From the NCBI RefSeq assembly GCF_017348835.2, contig NZ_CP071375.1: a stretch of DNA of 64,000 nucleotides, one strand, 5' to 3'. Below, one piece after another: positions 53,218-63,974 of the stretch. The position numbers were made by a program, and so were the translations under genes. Below the pieces are notes generated by a model. That model worked only from the letters and a program-made list of their open reading frames with translations. It made no database searches and was not told where the DNA came from. The stretch is from Escherichia coli (GTDB lineage: Bacteria > Pseudomonadota > Gammaproteobacteria > Enterobacterales > Enterobacteriaceae). Position 1 is the stretch's first letter, and each line of letters opens with the position of its first letter.

Positions 53218-55041
53218 GTGATCGAAAAATTGCGTAATATCGCCATCATCGCGCACGTAGACCATGGTAAAACCACCCTGGTAGACAAGCTGCTCCAACA
53301 ATCCGGTACGTTCGACTCTCGTGCCGAAACCCAAGAGCGCGTGATGGACTCCAACGATTTGGAGAAAGAGCGTGGGATTACCATCCTCGCGAAAAACACC
53401 GCTATCAAATGGAATGATTACCGTATCAACATCGTTGATACCCCGGGGCACGCCGACTTCGGTGGTGAAGTTGAACGTGTAATGTCCATGGTAGACTCAG
53501 TGCTGCTGGTGGTTGACGCATTTGACGGCCCGATGCCGCAAACGCGCTTCGTAACCAAAAAAGCGTTTGCTTACGGCCTGAAGCCGATTGTTGTTATCAA
53601 CAAAGTTGACCGCCCTGGCGCGCGTCCTGATTGGGTTGTGGATCAGGTATTCGATCTGTTCGTTAACCTCGACGCGACCGACGAGCAGCTGGACTTCCCG
53701 ATCGTTTACGCTTCTGCGCTTAACGGTATCGCGGGTCTGGACCACGAAGATATGGCGGAAGACATGACCCCGCTGTATCAGGCGATTGTTGATCACGTTC
53801 CTGCGCCGGACGTTGACCTTGACGGTCCGTTCCAGATGCAGATTTCTCAGCTCGATTACAACAGCTATGTTGGCGTTATCGGCATTGGCCGCATCAAGCG
53901 CGGTAAAGTGAAGCCGAACCAGCAGGTCACTATCATCGATAGCGAAGGCAAAACCCGCAACGCGAAAGTCGGTAAAGTGCTGGGCCACCTCGGTCTGGAA
54001 CGTATCGAAACCGATCTGGCGGAAGCTGGCGATATCGTGGCGATCACGGGCCTGGGCGAACTGAACATTTCTGACACCGTTTGCGACACGCAAAACGTTG
54101 AAGCGCTGCCGGCACTCTCCGTTGATGAGCCGACCGTTTCTATGTTCTTCTGCGTTAACACCTCGCCGTTCTGCGGTAAAGAAGGTAAGTTCGTAACGTC
54201 TCGTCAGATCCTGGATCGTCTGAACAAAGAACTGGTACACAACGTTGCGCTGCGCGTAGAAGAAACCGAAGACGCCGATGCGTTCCGCGTTTCTGGTCGT
54301 GGCGAACTGCACCTGTCTGTTCTGATCGAAAACATGCGTCGTGAAGGTTTCGAACTGGCGGTATCCCGTCCGAAAGTTATCTTCCGTGAAATCGACGGTC
54401 GTAAACAAGAGCCGTATGAAAACGTGACTCTGGACGTTGAAGAACAGCATCAGGGTTCTGTAATGCAGGCGCTGGGCGAACGTAAAGGCGACCTGAAAAA
54501 CATGAATCCAGACGGTAAAGGCCGCGTACGTCTCGACTACGTGATCCCAAGTCGTGGTCTGATTGGCTTCCGTTCTGAGTTCATGACCATGACTTCCGGT
54601 ACTGGTCTGCTGTACTCCACCTTCAGCCACTACGACGACGTACGTCCGGGCGAAGTGGGTCAGCGTCAGAACGGTGTACTGATCTCTAACGGTCAGGGTA
54701 AAGCGGTCGCGTTCGCGCTGTTCGGTCTGCAGGATCGCGGTAAGCTGTTCCTCGGTCACGGTGCAGAAGTTTACGAAGGTCAAATTATCGGTATTCACAG
54801 CCGCTCTAACGACCTGACTGTAAACTGCCTGACCGGTAAGAAACTGACCAACATGCGTGCTTCCGGTACTGACGAAGCCGTTGTTCTGGTTCCGCCTATC
54901 CGCATGACTCTGGAACAAGCTCTGGAGTTCATCGATGATGACGAACTGGTAGAAGTGACTCCGACCTCTATTCGTATTCGTAAACGTCACCTGACGGAAA
55001 ACGATCGTCGCCGCGCCAACCGCGCACCGAAAGACGATTAA
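53218..55041 (+). CDS. typA: Ribosome-associated translational GTPase BipA/TypA
   Basis: 607-aa ORF, GTG start, EF-G-like GTPase ([14 protein letters not shown]). Confidence 0.95.
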
Positions 55042-55060
55042 TTTCGTTTTTTAGTCATAA

Positions 55061-55090
55061 AAAACCTGCCAGCGATGGCAGGTTTTTTTT
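55061..55090 (+). terminator. Rho-independent terminator after typA
   Basis: AAACCTGCCAGCGATGGCAGGTTT hairpin followed by TTTTTTTTTG. Confidence 0.75.
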
Positions 55091-55257
55091 TGCCTGTCGT
55101 GAGCGCACACCAATGCGAGTATCTCCCTTATAAGTCTGTGATTACGTCAATAGAGAGCTTTGTCACAATTATCTGCAAAGTCATACACCGTTAATTGCTT
55201 TCTTTTTTGGCGTAAGCGTAAGATGCTTCATCTGGTTTAAACCAAAAGGATTAAACA

Positions 55258-55968
55258 ATGGCGGAGAATCAATCCACCGTAGAAAATGCAAAAGAGAAAC
55301 TGGATCGGTGGTTGAAAGATGGCATCACCACGCCGGGTGGAAAACTCCCTTCAGAAAGAGAGCTGGGAGAGCTGCTGGGCATTAAACGTATGACGTTGCG
55401 CCAGGCGTTGTTGAACCTCGAGGCAGAATCCAAAATCTTCCGTAAGGATCGTAAAGGGTGGTTTGTGACCCAGCCGCGATTTAATTACAGTCCGGAGCTG
55501 TCAGCGAGCTTTCAGCGGGCCGCAATTGAGCAAGGGCGGGAACCTTCCTGGGGTTTTACTGAGAAAAGCCGTACCAGCGATATTCCCGAGACTCTCGCGC
55601 CACTGATTGCAGTGACGCCATCAACTGAACTCTATCGCATCACCGGCTGGGGAGCGCTGGAAGGACATAAAGTTTTCTATCACGAAACATATATTAATCC
55701 TGAAGTTGCCCCGGGTTTTATTGAACAACTTGAAAACCACTCATTTTCTGCAGTCTGGGAAAAGAGCTACCAGAAAGAGACGGTAGTAAAAAAATTGATT
55801 TTCAAACCCGTCAGAATGCCAGGCGATATCAGCAAGTATCTTGGCGGTTCTGCGGGTATGCCAGCGATCTTAATTGAAAAGCATCGCGCCGACCAGCAAG
55901 GCAATATTGTCCAGATAGATATTGAATATTGGCGATTTGAGGCCGTAGACCTCATCATTAATCTGTAG
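55258..55968 (+). CDS. yihL: GntR-family transcriptional regulator YihL
   Basis: 236-aa ORF with N-terminal winged HTH and UTRA-like C-terminal domain. Confidence 0.9.
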   Translation: MAENQSTVENAKEKLDRWLKDGITTPGGKLPSERELGELLGIKRMTLRQALLNLEAESKIFRKDRKGWFVTQPRFNYSPELSASFQRAAIEQGREPSWGFTEKSRTSDIPETLAPLIAVTPSTELYRITGWGALEGHKVFYHETYINPEVAPGFIEQLENHSFSAVWEKSYQKETVVKKLIFKPVRMPGDISKYLGGSAGMPAILIEKHRADQQGNIVQIDIEYWRFEAVDLIINL

Positions 55969-55975
55969 GTGTTTT

Positions 55976-56956
55976 ATGGTGACAATAAATAACGCAAGAA
56001 AGATTCTACAACGTGTCGACACTCTTCCTCTTTATTTACATGCTTATGCCTTTCATTTAAATATGCGGCTGGAAAGAGTGTTGCCTGCTGATTTACTTGA
56101 TATCGCAAGTGAAAATAATCTACGTGGCGTCAAAATCCATGTTCTGGATGGCGAGCGTTTTTCTCTTGGTAATATGGACGATAAAGAACTCTCTGCCTTT
56201 GGAGATAAAGCCCGCCGTCTGAACCTTGATATTCATATTGAAACCAGCGCCTCAGATAAGGCATCTATTGACGAAGCCGTCGCCATCGCGTTGAAAACTG
56301 GGGCATCGTCCGTACGTTTTTATCCACGTTATGAAGGTAATTTGCGCGACGTATTATCGATTATCGCTAACGACATTGCCTATGTACGGGAAACGTATCA
56401 GGACAGCGGCCTGACTTTTACGATCGAGCAGCATGAAGATTTAAAAAGTCATGAGTTGGTGTCGCTGGTCAAAGAAAGTGAGATGGAGTCTCTTTCCTTA
56501 CTGTTTGATTTTGCGAACATGATCAATGCAAATGAGCATCCCATAGACGCCTTAAAAACGATGGCACCGCATATTACCCAGGTCCATATCAAAGATGCCT
56601 TGATCGTTAAAGAACAGGGTGGCCTGGGTCATAAAGCCTGTATTTCAGGTCAGGGTGATATGCCGTTCAAAGCGTTATTAACGCACCTTATCTGCCTGGG
56701 TGATGATGAGCCGCAGGTGACGGCATATGGCCTGGAAGAAGAGGTTGATTATTATGCACCGGCGTTCCGCTTTGAAGACGAAGATGATAATCCGTGGATC
56801 CCTTATCGCCAGATGAGTGAAACACCATTGCCAGAAAATCATTTACTGGATGCGCGGTTACGTAAAGAAAAAGAAGATGCAATTAATCAGATAAATCATG
56901 TGCGTAACGTACTACAACAAATCAAACAAGAGGCAAACCATCTTCTGAACCACTAA
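55976..56956 (+). CDS. yihM: Sugar-phosphate isomerase/epimerase (TIM-barrel) family protein YihM
   Basis: 326-aa ORF recognised as YihM. Confidence 0.88.
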   Translation: MVTINNARKILQRVDTLPLYLHAYAFHLNMRLERVLPADLLDIASENNLRGVKIHVLDGERFSLGNMDDKELSAFGDKARRLNLDIHIETSASDKASIDEAVAIALKTGASSVRFYPRYEGNLRDVLSIIANDIAYVRETYQDSGLTFTIEQHEDLKSHELVSLVKESEMESLSLLFDFANMINANEHPIDALKTMAPHITQVHIKDALIVKEQGGLGHKACISGQGDMPFKALLTHLICLGDDEPQVTAYGLEEEVDYYAPAFRFEDEDDNPWIPYRQMSETPLPENHLLDARLRKEKEDAINQINHVRNVLQQIKQEANHLLNH

Positions 56957-57057
56957 TAAGTTTTAACTCATACGCAGTTAACAAAACCATTCCATATGAA
57001 TGGTCGGTATCTTATTGCCTTTAAAACAGTGATTTTAAAAATCGCTTAGGGGATGTT

Positions 57058-58323
57058 ATGCTCACGAAAAAGAAATGGGCGTTATTTAGTCTATTAACAC
57101 TGTGTGGCGGTACAATTTATAAATTACCGTCGCTGAAAGATGCGTTTTATATCCCGATGCAGGAATATTTCCATTTGACCAATGGTCAAATTGGTAATGC
57201 TATGTCGGTAAACTCATTTGTTACCACAGTGGGCTTTTTTCTGTCTATTTATTTTGCCGATAAACTACCGCGCAGATACACCATGTCATTCTCACTCATT
57301 GCGACAGGATTACTGGGTGTTTATTTGACGACAATGCCGGGGTATTGGGGCATCCTCTTTGTCTGAGCGCTATTTGGCGTTACTTGCGACATGATGAACT
57401 GGCCGGTCTTGCTCAAGTCGGTAAGTCGATTGGGCAATAGCGAACAACAAGGTCGGTTGTTTGGCTTCTTCGAAACAGGGCGTGGCATTGTCGATACCGT
57501 GGTGGCATTTTCTGCGTTGGCAGTATTTACCTGGTTTGGCAGTGGCTTATTGGGTTTTAAAGCAGGCATCTGGTTCTATTCCCTTATTGTGATTGCCGTA
57601 GGCATTATTATTTTCTTTGTCCTGAATGACAAAGAAGAGGCACCGTCCGTTGAGGTGAAAAAAGAAGACGGAGCATCGCAAAACACCAGTATGACCTCGG
57701 TGCTGAGAGACAAAACTATCTGGCTTATCGCTTTCAACGTCTTCTTCGTTTACGCGGTTTACTGTGGCCTGACATTCTTCATTCCATTCCTGAAAAACAT
57801 CTATCTATTGCCCGTTGCGCTGGTGGGGGCTTACGGCATCATTAACCAATACTGTCTGAAAATGATTGGTGGACCGATTGGTGGCATGATTTCAGATAAG
57901 ATCCTGAAATCGCCAAGTAAATATCTATGCTACACCTTTATCATCAGTACCGCTGCGCTCGTACTGTTGATTATGCTGCCGCACGAAAGTATGCCGGTCT
58001 ATTTAGGGATGGCATGTACGCTGGGCTTTGGCGCGATAGTCTTTACACAGCGAGCCGTATTTTTTGCACCTATCGGCGAAGCAAAAATTGCTGAGAATAA
58101 AACAGGCGCGGCGATGGCGTTGGGTAGCTTTATTGGTTACGCCCCGGCGATGTTCTGCTTCAGTCTGTATGGCTACATTCTGGATTTAAATCCGGGGATT
58201 ATTGGCTACAAAATCGTGTTTGGCATTATGGCCTGCTTCGCATTCTGTGGTGCGGTGGTTTCCGTAATGCTGGTTAAGCGTATTAGCCAACGTAAGAAAG
58301 AGATGCTGGCGGCTGAAGCTTAA
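57058..58323 (+). pseudogene. yihN: MFS transporter yihN interrupted by an in-frame TGA at 57364-57366
   Basis: Two same-frame ORFs (102 aa ending ...GILFV-stop, then 310 aa from MMNWPVLL) separated by 24 nt that translate in frame (ALFGVTCD); together they reconstruct a 421-codon MFS transporter. Confidence 0.8.
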
Positions 58324-58328
58324 TTAAT

Positions 58329-58406
<78 letters not shown>

Positions 58407-58413
58407 TTTCACA

Positions 58414-59106
58414 TCAGAAGAAATACTTCGTCCCGATACGAATCTGGTTTTGCTCGCGGTGGTACGGTTCCACGTTGCGATCTAACCAGCGCAATTCAAT
58501 ATAGGGCAGCCAGTGCTCGTTAATGCGGTAACGGAAGGTGTTAGTGATTTCCCAGTGATGCTTCGTGCCATTGCTGCTATTGAAATCATTAATGTTATAA
58601 AAATAATGCGGCTCAAAGGTATATGAGAACTTATCGGTAATAATAAAGTTCCAGTAGTTGCCAATCTCGTAGCTGTCATTATTATCCAGATCACCGTTTA
58701 AATCGGTTGAGCTGTAGTTATTATGGTTAAAACGATTGCGCACTGTCAGGTTAAACCACGGAGTAAATTTGTAGTTAACATCCAGATAAACAGCACCACC
58801 GGAACCGGCGCTCTTATCATTAATTAAGCCACCGGGCTGGATGGTTAATTTATCGGTTGGTTTAAATAACGGATACCAGCCTTCAATTTCGTTATATCCA
58901 TGTTTTAGTTCATCTTCTCGCTGAAAGGTGTAGGTATTGGTTAACATAATACCCGCGCCCATATCGAAGTTATAACCCACACGTAGCATAACCTCGCCCT
59001 GATCGGAGGCGAGATTATATGCCTCCCTGTTTTCGACGTATGCGCCAGCGAATACTGAGGCAGAGGTCAGAGAAGATAATAAAATTATTGCATTAATATT
59101 TTTCAT
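58414..59106 (-). CDS. ompL: Outer membrane porin L
   Basis: ORF track 58414..59172; Met23 (MKNINAIILLSSLTSASVFA signal peptide) gives 230 aa; C-terminal aromatic YFF. Confidence 0.9.
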   Translation of the reverse strand: MKNINAIILLSSLTSASVFAGAYVENREAYNLASDQGEVMLRVGYNFDMGAGIMLTNTYTFQREDELKHGYNEIEGWYPLFKPTDKLTIQPGGLINDKSAGSGGAVYLDVNYKFTPWFNLTVRNRFNHNNYSSTDLNGDLDNNDSYEIGNYWNFIITDKFSYTFEPHYFYNINDFNSSNGTKHHWEITNTFRYRINEHWLPYIELRWLDRNVEPYHREQNQIRIGTKYFF

Positions 59107-59172: not shown

Positions 59173-60056
59173 TTATAACGTTACGGAAGCCGTTTTTTCT
59201 TCTGTCGCCATCTCTTTATTTTTGCGTTGGTTGATTTCCTCAATAATCAACGCAAACCGTTTTTCATTGAGTGTGTAAAAGAATCCCATCGTCAATGCAG
59301 CAATAATTGCCAGTGCACAAGGCCAGATAAAAATGAGCTGACGCAAACCCTGTAATGTCGCATCACTTTGCGCGATGTTTGGAACATAACCGATTTGCGT
59401 CAGCATAATCCCTGGCAAGAAGCCAGCAAGTGCGGCAGAAATTTTACGAAAGAAGGTATAACCGGTATAAACAGAACCTTCGGCACGAATACCGGTTTTC
59501 CATTCACCGTAATCTACGGTATCTGGTACCAGTGCCCAGTTCAGGCTGTTTACAAAGGCCGTGCCAAAAAAGGCGACACAAGAGAACATGACGAAAGTGA
59601 AAGAGTTACTTCCCCAGAAATAATTCAGGATATCACCAACCGCCCATAGCACCATGCCAGCTAAATAAACCTGTTTTTTACCAAAACATTTTACAGTTAA
59701 TGGCACCAGTAATACGCCGATGAGGATGCATCCCATACTGAAGAATCCCATCCACGACAATAAATTAATATCATTCAGCACATACTGGGTGTAATAGACC
59801 TGAATCGCCAGTTTGATATTAAATGCCGCCAGGGTACACAAGTTAGCAATGCATAAAACCAGCAATGGCGGATTCCGAAATATCGCGCAAAATGATTTGA
59901 GAATACTGGCTTTATGTCCGGTTGGCGTTGTGTCCACATAATGCTCTTTGACGCCTCTGTAGCACAGCATCATAAAAATAAAGCCGCCAATGGAGAACAT
60001 AAGTGCCGCACAGGCATAACCGACGGTTGAGTCAGAAAAAAGCGACTGCAACGGAA
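59173..60056 (-). pseudogene. yihO: C-terminal ~294 codons of MFS (GPH family) transporter yihO; N-terminal ~170 codons absent, frame runs into IS629 end
   Basis: ORF-track product begins mid-protein (xQSLFSDSTVGYACAALMFSIGG...) with open frame upstream up to the IS inverted repeat at 60057; K-12 YihO is about 467 aa. Confidence 0.8.
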
Positions 60057-60098
60057 TGAACCGCCCCGGGTTTCCTGGAGAGTGTTTTATCTGTGAAC

Positions 60099-60986
60099 TC
60101 AGGCTGCCAGATCATTATTTCCGATGGAAGCATAATAAGCTTTTTCTGCTTCTGCCGGAGGAATATGGCCCAGCCTTTCCAGCAATCGTCGATTGTTATA
60201 CCAGTCCACCCACGTTAGTGTGGCCAGTTCCACTTCTGTCCGGTTTTTCCAGCTCTTACGGTGTATTACCTCCGCTTTGTAAAGACCATTGATGCTCTCA
60301 GCCATCGCGTTGTCATACGAGTCGCCAGTACTCCCTGTTGATGCCAGTAATCCGGCTTCCTTAAGCCGCTGCGTGTAGGCCAGCGATACATACTGAGAAC
60401 CTTTATCACTGTGATGGATTGTGCCGGACGGCCGACGGGCCCACAACGCCTGCTCCAGTGCATCCAGCACGAATGTTGTTTCCATGGATGATGAGACCTG
60501 CCATCCCACGATGTATCCGGCGAACACATCAATGATGAACGCCACATAAACGAAGCCCTGCCATGTGCTTACCCAGGTAAAATCAGCCACCCACAACTGG
60601 TCTGGACGTTCTGCCACGAACTGACGGTTTACGCGGTCGCATGCGGCAACGGCTTTCCGGCTGACGGTAGTGCGGACCTTTTTACCCCGGAGAACACCGG
60701 CAAGTCCCATAACTGCCATGAGACGTGCCACAGTGCATCTGGCCACTCTGATACCTTCCCGTAACAACTGACGCCAGACTTTACGCACACCGTATACCTG
60801 GTGATTTTCATCGTATACGCGCTGTATCTCTTTCTTCAGCCAGTCATCGTGCTGCGCACGGGCACTGCGTTTATCCGGATGATGTCGCTGTTGCTGACAA
60901 TGGTAATACGTTGACGGGGCAATATGCAGTTCGCTGCATACCGGTCCGCCCCCGTACTGCTCACGCAGCTTATCCAGCAGTGGCAT
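60099..60986 (-). CDS. IS629 transposase OrfB (DDE catalytic part)
   Basis: 295-aa ORF in the -1 frame relative to OrfA, overlapping its stop (AAAAAATAATG); DDE integrase-like (…WVADFTW…HSDKGSQY…). Confidence 0.9.
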   Translation of the reverse strand: MPLLDKLREQYGGGPVCSELHIAPSTYYHCQQQRHHPDKRSARAQHDDWLKKEIQRVYDENHQVYGVRKVWRQLLREGIRVARCTVARLMAVMGLAGVLRGKKVRTTVSRKAVAACDRVNRQFVAERPDQLWVADFTWVSTWQGFVYVAFIIDVFAGYIVGWQVSSSMETTFVLDALEQALWARRPSGTIHHSDKGSQYVSLAYTQRLKEAGLLASTGSTGDSYDNAMAESINGLYKAEVIHRKSWKNRTEVELATLTWVDWYNNRRLLERLGHIPPAEAEKAYYASIGNNDLAA

Positions 60987-61312
60987 TATTTTTTCCAGAG
61001 GCGGTCGAACTCCGCCTTCGCAAAATAAGCGGAAGCCTGGCGAAGGATATCGTTACTGCGGCGCAGTTCACGATTTTCACGTTCCAGCTCTTTCAGACGC
61101 TGACGTTCAGCGGTGGTGAGTCCACCATCACCACTCCCGGTATCCCGCTCATGCTGGCGAACCCAGACACGCAGAGTCTCCGGCGTACAGCCAATCTTTG
61201 GGGCAATGGAACAAATTGCCGCCCACTGTGAGTCATATTCATCCTGACTTTCCAGAACCATACGAATCGCCCGCTGACGGACTTCGGGGGAAAAACGAGT
61301 ATTTTTAGTCAT
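60986..61312 (-). CDS. IS629 transposase OrfA (HTH DNA-binding part)
   Basis: 108-aa [26 protein letters not shown]... with leucine-zipper-like C-terminus, typical IS3 OrfA. Confidence 0.9.
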
Positions 61313-62498: not shown

Positions 62499-63974
62499 TC
62501 AGACTCCCATCCCTACGGTATACGAGTTAGATTCATGAATGAAATCGACATTTTTAAAAAACGAATCTTGTAAAACATCCGTGTTGATATTACCTTGCAA
62601 CCCAACATTAAATTTGTTAGAGACATGAAGAACTCGAATATCAAAAAGGTCTTTTAACATCATTACTTCTTCGGCTGTTAATGAATCGCAACTAAAATAT
62701 CCCTGTTGATCAAAAAGGTTTTCTATTTCTCCACCATCGGCGAGGCGTTTTTCAAGGAGTGTTTGCAACATCGAGTTGCCAAGGACAATGGATATAGTGC
62801 GATCTTTCGCAGATTTACACCCCATCACAACGGCAACATTCGTATCCCCCTCAGGAGTTTCATTTATCGCTGTCGCTAAAATGGTGGTCAAACACGCAAA
62901 CGGAACTGTATTTCTTTCGTGATTTAATTTATCTACCAGTTCATTCCATTTATCAAAAGCCGGACGATATTTGTTGCGCACAGAAATATCCGACTGGTTA
63001 AACAATTCAGCCATGCGATTTTTTATCATCTCGATATCCGGCGAACCAGAAAGACTTTGCGCATAATACGGTCCTGATGATGTTGCATACATTAAAGCCG
63101 AGCCCACACCTGTCGCCATGATGGGCGCAGCCACGGTTTTGGCAAGGGCGACGCTGCGATGGCTATGCGCTTCACAGGTTAAAGGAACATATTCCACTGA
63201 CTGCGGTAATTCCTTACATGCCTCCCTCATCATTGCGGTATGCTTTACAAACAACGGTTTTTCACTGCCAAAAAAAACCTTCTGCTTAATTGCACTAAGA
63301 AAACGCAAATCAAAAATGATTGTTTTTGGTTTATTATTTTTTGGCACATTTCCTATTATCCCGCTAAGAACCTTCCTTGCTGCATGGAGATTTTTTTGCA
63401 CAGCACATAACACAATTGACGAAGCCTTCTCTACTTCGTCATTGATTTTAATTTTAAAATCTGCATGATATACGTTGACGGGCAGTGCAAGTATATCTGG
63501 CCCTACATCTTTGGCTGAGTATTTATTGGTGATCGACGGCCGTGAATCCACGAGAAAACTTAGCTGCAAATTATGCTCTATATTACCAGCTGTTTTTGTG
63601 GTGTGATTAAACATAGAGATGCCACCTCTCATTCTTTCACACATATCCTCAACTTTTTCACTTCGTTCTTGTGGCAATTTGGCTTTAACGTTAATTTGAT
63701 GATTTTTACCCGTGCATTCCTTAACTACAAGGGGAATGTTATCTAAAGTGCCATACAGGCTAATAACGTCACCAGGATTTTTATCATGTAAGTAAGTTTG
63801 ATTAATACTTGAAGCATTCACAAAGAGGTCAATATTATAACTGTTTATAACTTCACCTACATCAAATGTGTAGTGCTTACTCTGGAGGCTGCCATCCTTA
63901 TTTAATTGTATATCAATCAATATATCCCCGGACTTTGTCACCATATCTTTGCCATAAACCATTTGCATAGCCAT
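62499..63974 (-). CDS. Putative CX5R P-loop phosphatase, phosphoinositide-phosphatase-like (INPP4 / SopB / IpgD-type); N-terminus probably beyond window edge
   Basis: 491-aa ORF with no in-frame stop between first ATG (63974) and window end; exact CKSAKDRT octapeptide at residues 386-393 (minus strand 62819..62796, read directly as TGT AAA TCT GCG AAA GAT CGC ACT); AT-rich composition; next to IS629. Confidence 0.6.
   Translation of the reverse strand: MAMQMVYGKDMVTKSGDILIDIQLNKDGSLQSKHYTFDVGEVINSYNIDLFVNASSINQTYLHDKNPGDVISLYGTLDNIPLVVKECTGKNHQINVKAKLPQERSEKVEDMCERMRGGISMFNHTTKTAGNIEHNLQLSFLVDSRPSITNKYSAKDVGPDILALPVNVYHADFKIKINDEVEKASSIVLCAVQKNLHAARKVLSGIIGNVPKNNKPKTIIFDLRFLSAIKQKVFFGSEKPLFVKHTAMMREACKELPQSVEYVPLTCEAHSHRSVALAKTVAAPIMATGVGSALMYATSSGPYYAQSLSGSPDIEMIKNRMAELFNQSDISVRNKYRPAFDKWNELVDKLNHERNTVPFACLTTILATAINETPEGDTNVAVVMGCKSAKDRTISIVLGNSMLQTLLEKRLADGGEIENLFDQQGYFSCDSLTAEEVMMLKDLFDIRVLHVSNKFNVGLQGNINTDVLQDSFFKNVDFIHESNSYTVGMGV

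Follow-up and report, generated by a model that had tools for sequence, protein, structure and literature searches.

The window analysed here is a stretch of 64,000 nucleotides of Escherichia coli DNA, and it carries the gene order typA–yihL–yihM–yihN–ompL, as in K-12. Two genes upstream of yihN are intact on the plus strand: yihL (55258–55968), encoding a GntR regulator, and yihM (55976–56956), encoding a member of the sugar-phosphate isomerase/epimerase family. Both are uninterrupted open reading frames (ORFs), and in the genomes PE164 and F2_81 PGAP annotates them without a pseudogene flag. On the other side, ompL (58414–59106, minus strand; placed by transferring the PGAP annotation of PE164 by coordinates) is convergent with yihN. 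The gene between them, yihN (57058–58323, plus strand), is a pseudogene of an MFS transporter with one internal stop, recognised by its identity to yihN of PE164, F2_81 and K-12. Translation of this interval gives 421 codons with a normal terminal stop and a single internal one, a TGA at 57364–57366 that occupies codon 103. The ORF list accordingly holds two pieces, one of 102 aa (57058–57366) covering TM1–TM3 and the first seven residues of TM4, and one of 310 aa (57391–58323) that begins at M112 and is a possible restart product. The original prediction described two same-frame pieces of 102 and 310 aa split by one TGA, and the translation and the ORF list agree with it: the 24-nt gap reads ALFGVTCD and leads directly into M112 and M113. 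The Shine-Dalgarno (SD) sequence of the native start, AGGGGA at 57048–57053 on the plus strand, is intact, with a duplex energy of -6.4 kcal/mol. Two minor features lie close by. At 55026–55094 on the plus strand, Rfam matches the enterobacterial sRNA STnc370 (55.6 bits against a gathering score of 54), over the 3' terminus of typA and the first part of the typA–yihL spacer, and just downstream of yihN the sequence at 58340–58410 (…ccgtaggccggataaggcgtttacgccgcatccggca…) resembles, by eye, a REP-type palindromic element.

What stood at codon 103 before the stop? The gene in the window is 99.1% identical at the nucleotide level to the intact yihN of K-12 over 1266 nt, and this identity, together with the shared gene order, marks K-12 YihN (UniProt P32135 as cited in PMC8131027; WP_000956313.1) as the orthologue at the same locus. 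In K-12, codon 103 is TGG (Trp) and the gene encodes a 421-aa protein, whereas the window allele ends after 102 aa. Within 131 nt around the site the sole difference between the two is this codon, TGG in K-12 against TGA in the window, a G to A change at 57366. Over the whole gene, the W103 stop is accompanied by ten ordinary allelic differences and no further lesion. An in-frame stop thus stands at a sense codon of the orthologue in a gene otherwise alignable over its full length, the situation that PGAP labels an internal stop. By megablast, yihN is present in 4,300 of 5,426 complete E. coli genomes, always chromosomal and annotated as 'yihN: MFS transporter'; a match is absent from the other 1126 (21%). 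When a 61-nt probe centred on codon 103 was matched exactly against the 4288 complete genomes carrying the site, 4045 matched with TGG, two with TGA and none with TAG. The closest intact allele among complete genomes is that of XJ34 (99.6%), from which the window differs by the stop and four synonymous changes, with no non-synonymous change, frameshift or second stop. Because the nearest intact allele is this close, and because yihL and yihM are intact, the lesion looks young. The original prediction of a recent pseudogene created at a Trp codon (TGG to TGA), including its statement that K-12 has W here, is therefore borne out by the K-12 alignment, the allele counts, the homologues described below and the comparison with XJ34.

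Is the stop a real mutation, or was the true codon TGG and the base misread? The suspicion is natural for a single base that departs from the consensus of thousands of genomes, and a sequencing error had been named as one alternative. However, yihN of PE164 (a pig isolate from Nanjing, China; NZ_CP114128) and of F2_81 (a pig rectal swab from Australia; NZ_CP043542) is 100% identical to the window over 1266 nt, TGA included. PGAP labels both copies (LZG51_RS23615 and CPH39_RS23590, respectively) as 'MFS transporter', pseudogene, 'internal stop', so the pseudogene state was already known. The neighbourhood yihL–yihM–yihN–ompL is also as in the window. The window and PE164 differ by two mismatches in 12,943 nt, neither of them in yihN; the window and F2_81 differ by three mismatches and a single gap in the 9,735 nt that run up to an IS3 junction. 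Among complete genomes, the yihL–yihM segment is 100% identical in these two strains only, the next match being at 99.3%. The two carriers nevertheless differ in structure downstream: PE164 has the IS3 junction in yihO, like the window, whereas yihO of F2_81 is intact. The exact 102-aa product is recorded on 185 contigs, and three of nine loci compared add further copies of the identical nucleotide allele, in GCA_900195765.1, GCA_019365225.1 and an ENA metagenome contig (ERZ27235121). Moreover, the site lies outside any homopolymer. With the same allele seen by independent laboratories on different platforms and continents, in complete, draft and metagenome assemblies and in two different downstream structures, an artefact is ruled out for practical purposes, and a true TGG at this position is hardly credible. 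The TGA is a clean lineage marker for the pig-associated clone of PE164 and F2_81. As a separate observation, the window departs from the RefSeq record of PE164 at just two of the 12,943 nt, at 59724, in a fragment of yihO, and at 60949, inside the ALIL pseudoknot region of an IS3-family element; it therefore comes from a strain very closely related to PE164 or is another assembly version of PE164 itself.

What would be lost with the C-terminal part of the protein? Residues 33–364 of intact K-12 YihN match Pfam PF07690 (MFS_1; E = 9.9e-27), and both fragments in the window carry precomputed hits to the same family. A hydropathy scan (threshold 1.5) missed the N-terminal helices, and helix boundaries were instead taken from an AlphaFold2 model of intact YihN built on 24 homologues (pLDDT 85, pTM 0.84). 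The model places helices at residues 4–37 (kinked), 42–69, 72–90, 96–123, 131–159 and 164–188, then a loop in the centre that is disordered, and after it another six helices. Foldseek matches this model, with TM-scores of 0.75–0.82, to GlpT (PDB 1pw4, 0.80), human G6PT/SLC37A4, SPNS2 and DgoT, and also to sialin. The best structural matches, GlpT and G6PT (TM-score about 0.8), share only 13–17% sequence identity with YihN. Membership of the OPA (organophosphate:phosphate antiporter) family was considered and rejected: YihN scores 65.3 bits against TIGR00881 (the PgtP subfamily, PgtP/GlpT/UhpT-type), far below the curated NCBIfam cut-off of 407.75, and the likeness is one of fold only. W103 sits in the first third of helix 96–123, which is TM4, so the allele in the window has no uninterrupted ORF for all twelve helices; the twelve-helix MFS fold, with its two bundles of six, is found, by model and Foldseek, for intact YihN alone. 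With the stop this early in TM4, the 102-aa product, judged on the modelled fold, cannot form a twelve-helix MFS transporter and would not be expected to transport. W103 is invariant across 24 full-length homologues at 55–90% identity, drawn from Enterobacterales, Aeromonas, Neisseriaceae, Acinetobacter and Clostridia (Raoultella, Klebsiella, Budvicia, Pragia, Serratia, Morganella, Aeromonas, Uruburuella, Acinetobacter and several Clostridia, among others), and conservation along the protein is highest in the N-terminal ~100 residues (102). All 24 measure about 420 aa, with no start at M112 and no natural split among them. The comparison of orthologues, suggested at the outset as something that could overturn the pseudogene, leaves it standing.

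Could the cell still make a transporter from the two pieces? The original prediction pointed to the MM doublet eight codons downstream as a restart that could yield a truncated 310-aa protein. Taken further, ribosomes would terminate at 57364–57366 and restart 24 nt on at the ATG at 57391 (M112), and the 102-aa and 310-aa pieces would assemble into a split transporter. The two ORFs are indeed in frame, close together and otherwise intact, and there are MFS proteins, LacY among them, that tolerate being expressed in two parts. The signals for initiation, however, argue against it. In the 20 nt before the ATG at 57391 the anti-SD duplex energy is -1.5 kcal/mol, compared with -6.4 at the native start, and is weaker than the gene-wide mean of -2.35; among all in-frame starts up to codon 165, no SD matches the native one, the best reaching -4.9 kcal/mol. 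The position of the break is no more favourable, since in the AlphaFold2 model it falls inside TM4 and not in a loop. By the same model the product from M112 would lack TM1–TM3 and residues 96–111 of TM4, and residues 103–111 (WALFGVTCD) are missing from both fragments. These include the invariant W103 along with A104, F106 and D111, which are nearly invariant (24 homologues). The absence of any naturally split homologue, or of one starting here, points the same way. A working split transporter is very improbable. As for the restart alone, it is physically possible, but it finds no support in an SD sequence and its product would be without TM1–TM3 and most of TM4.

Is the stop always obeyed? 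A second way to retain some function would be a leaky stop, in which Trp-tRNA-Trp, near-cognate to UGA, occasionally decodes it as the original Trp, so that a little wild-type YihN is made, enough for some function. UGA is the stop codon most prone to read-through, and the UGA-A context is reported to be especially prone to misreading by tRNA-Trp in E. coli (PMC5289835). In a K-12 reporter, read-through by Trp-tRNA-Trp in competition with RF2 is about 2% at 37 °C and 4% at 25 °C (PMC10570021). The rest of the ORF is free of other lesions and of non-synonymous changes relative to XJ34. Against this, the base after the stop is a G, so that the context here is UGA-G and not the misreading-prone UGA-A, and no downstream structure or conservation marks a programmed site. 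Other lineages have TAG at codon 103, beyond rescue by tRNA-Trp. Furthermore, RF2 of K-12 is an unusually weak variant, and read-through is probably lower in natural isolates. The transporter is already poorly expressed, and a few percent of it at most are also unlikely to matter. Functionally relevant leakage is thus quite unlikely. Since read-through by tRNA-Trp would restore exactly the wild-type residue, a trace of wild-type YihN is possible, and the TGA allele, though severe, may be hypomorphic instead of strictly null.

A programmed event, with the UGA as a selenocysteine codon or a regulated read-through site, has in its favour that UGA is the codon used for selenocysteine. The homologues speak clearly against it, as the residue is Trp in 24 of 24 and never Sec or Cys, and so does the predominance of TGG in E. 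coli (4045 of 4288 genomes). Programmed read-through would call for a stop conserved among orthologues, and only two of the 4288 complete genomes have it. No SECIS hairpin was found 3' of the UGA: the 73 nt at 57358–57430 fold no better than shuffled sequences (z = +0.22) and there is no Rfam match at the site. With neither a SECIS element nor Sec or Cys in relatives, nothing identifies yihN as a selenoprotein gene. The read-through site that the original prediction listed as its less likely alternative is marked by nothing in the sequence as programmed, and recoding has a negligible probability.

How, then, is the locus best explained? Very probably, a real and inherited G-to-A transition turned the invariant Trp103 codon (TGG) into TGA in one E. 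coli lineage, leaving a 102-residue fragment as the main product and YihN function lost or nearly lost. The complete genomes of this lineage are those of the pig isolates PE164 and F2_81, the window being nearly identical to PE164. Translation would end inside TM4 and release the TM1–3 fragment, with little or no restart product; function is predicted to be lost or nearly so because a fragment of this length cannot form the twelve-helix transporter. Rho-dependent polarity would weaken expression of the untranslated 3' part of yihN. A polar effect on other genes is not expected, since the next gene, ompL, is convergent. The loss would be tolerated because yihN is dispensable. Counted against this reading is the intactness of yihL and yihM, as the locus as a whole is not decayed. 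Judged from its sequence, yihN is here an ordinary lineage-specific nonsense pseudogene of a dispensable accessory transporter, fixed in a single sampled lineage and already annotated as such by RefSeq for the identical sequence. It should be called one pseudogene, as RefSeq does, and not two ORFs. Strains of the PE164/F2_81 lineage would be natural yihN nulls or near-nulls and possible controls in a search for the substrate of the transporter. Beyond annotation the importance is small, and the case adds one more data point that natural E. coli and Shigella can dispense with an orphan MFS importer and have lost it repeatedly.

How often has this happened? The loci that encode the same 102-aa product have different allelic backgrounds and use both TGA and TAG, which indicates at least four separate origins of the W103 stop in E. 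coli. Each allele was compared with its closest intact allele in complete genomes. The window allele (TGA) is 5 nt from XJ34, and another TGA allele (locus L009) is 3 nt from CFSAN061763. The TAG alleles of loci L008 and L014 are 1 nt from HKUOPY1 and EC812A1, and that of L011, to which L010 is similar, is 1 nt from CFSAN061763. TGA thus arose twice and TAG at least twice. Recurrence elsewhere in the gene was assessed by counting contigs that encode the products of ten other single-transition nonsense mutations up to codon 222. Each of the ten products is on record, on 10–297 contigs: Q35 (172), Q44 (148), W97 (42), W115 (152), R124 (48), Q130 (45), Q131 (34), W159 (158 aa; 297, including a 4.77-Mb chromosome), W172 (41) and W222 (10). 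As every one of these transition-accessible alleles exists, yihN is a dispensable gene and often lost. Other complete genomes have IS1 and IS903B insertions in the gene (ET734, MB51), and, as a side observation, there is a variant of 383 aa with an in-frame deletion of 38 residues. The other natural nulls of E. coli and Shigella share the outcome with the window, a truncated YihN, but they originated independently, in other lineages, and either lie at other positions or use another stop codon. In K-12, the Keio yihN deletion strain is viable, and its uptake of many fluorescent cationic dyes is lowered, by more than 10-fold (PMC8131027). DiSC3(5) and rhodamine 700 are among the dyes that depend on YihN.

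A mutational hotspot at codon 103 was considered as a source of the recurrence and rejected: beside ten other nonsense products on 10–297 contigs, the 185 contigs of the 102-aa product are unexceptional. Inspection of the surrounding bases also shows no Dcm motif (CCWGG) at this codon.

Contig counts of this kind are noisy. Comparable truncations in control genes are found on 0–59 contigs, namely typA W65 (38), W139 (35) and Q108 (0), glnA W58 (46), W159 (54) and Q99 (27), yihL W68 (54), W98 (59) and W131 (0), and yihM Q142 (35). This background probably reflects assembly errors, contig ends (locus L015 is one such artefact) and uneven clonal sampling. A few clones that expanded under relaxed selection, several of them named Shigella, could account for the higher counts of some yihN alleles. 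Is the loss of YihN adaptive and not merely tolerated? The Q35, Q44, W115 and W159 stops are on 150–300 contigs compared with 0–59 for the controls, and with at least four origins of the W103 stop they form the basis of such a reading. As dye uptake falls more than 10-fold without yihN, its loss might protect against toxic cationic compounds, for example in livestock niches, and the TGA alleles, unlike those with TAG, could be leaky and reversible knock-downs by way of tRNA-Trp. We regard adaptive loss as unlikely. The contig counts were trusted only in part and were rejected as proof of selection for yihN loss, and adaptive loss is not demonstrated. Mere tolerance of a dispensable gene's loss is the preferred reading.

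Across E. coli, the structure of the region that follows yihN is unstable. In the window, 59173–61312 holds a 3' fragment of yihO (59173–60060) and an IS3-family element (60099–61312) that splits the gene; yihO is annotated as an MFS/GPH transporter gene and adjoins the sulfoquinovose-catabolism genes yihP–yihV. Rfam finds the IS3 ALIL frameshift pseudoknot at 60915–61031 on the minus strand. In the PE164 record (4817494–4837357) a second, inverted IS3 copy adjoins yiiF with the other fragment of yihO beside it, and the ~18.7 kb between the two copies (yihP through yiiE) are inverted relative to K-12. Since F2_81 has the same stop in yihN but an intact yihO, the IS3 rearrangement is younger than the yihN mutation. 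Some other strains have lost genes here: in XJ34 (NZ_CP098231, 7341–7744) remnants of csqR (yihW) and yihV directly follow yihN, and in GCA_014328835.1 (5326–7050; locus L010) the complete csqR (yihW) and yihV do so, which means that ompL through yihU are deleted in both. Further along the window, 62499–63974 on the minus strand is a single ORF of 491 aa, which PGAP annotates in PE164 as a 305-aa transposase and an adjacent partial hypothetical protein.
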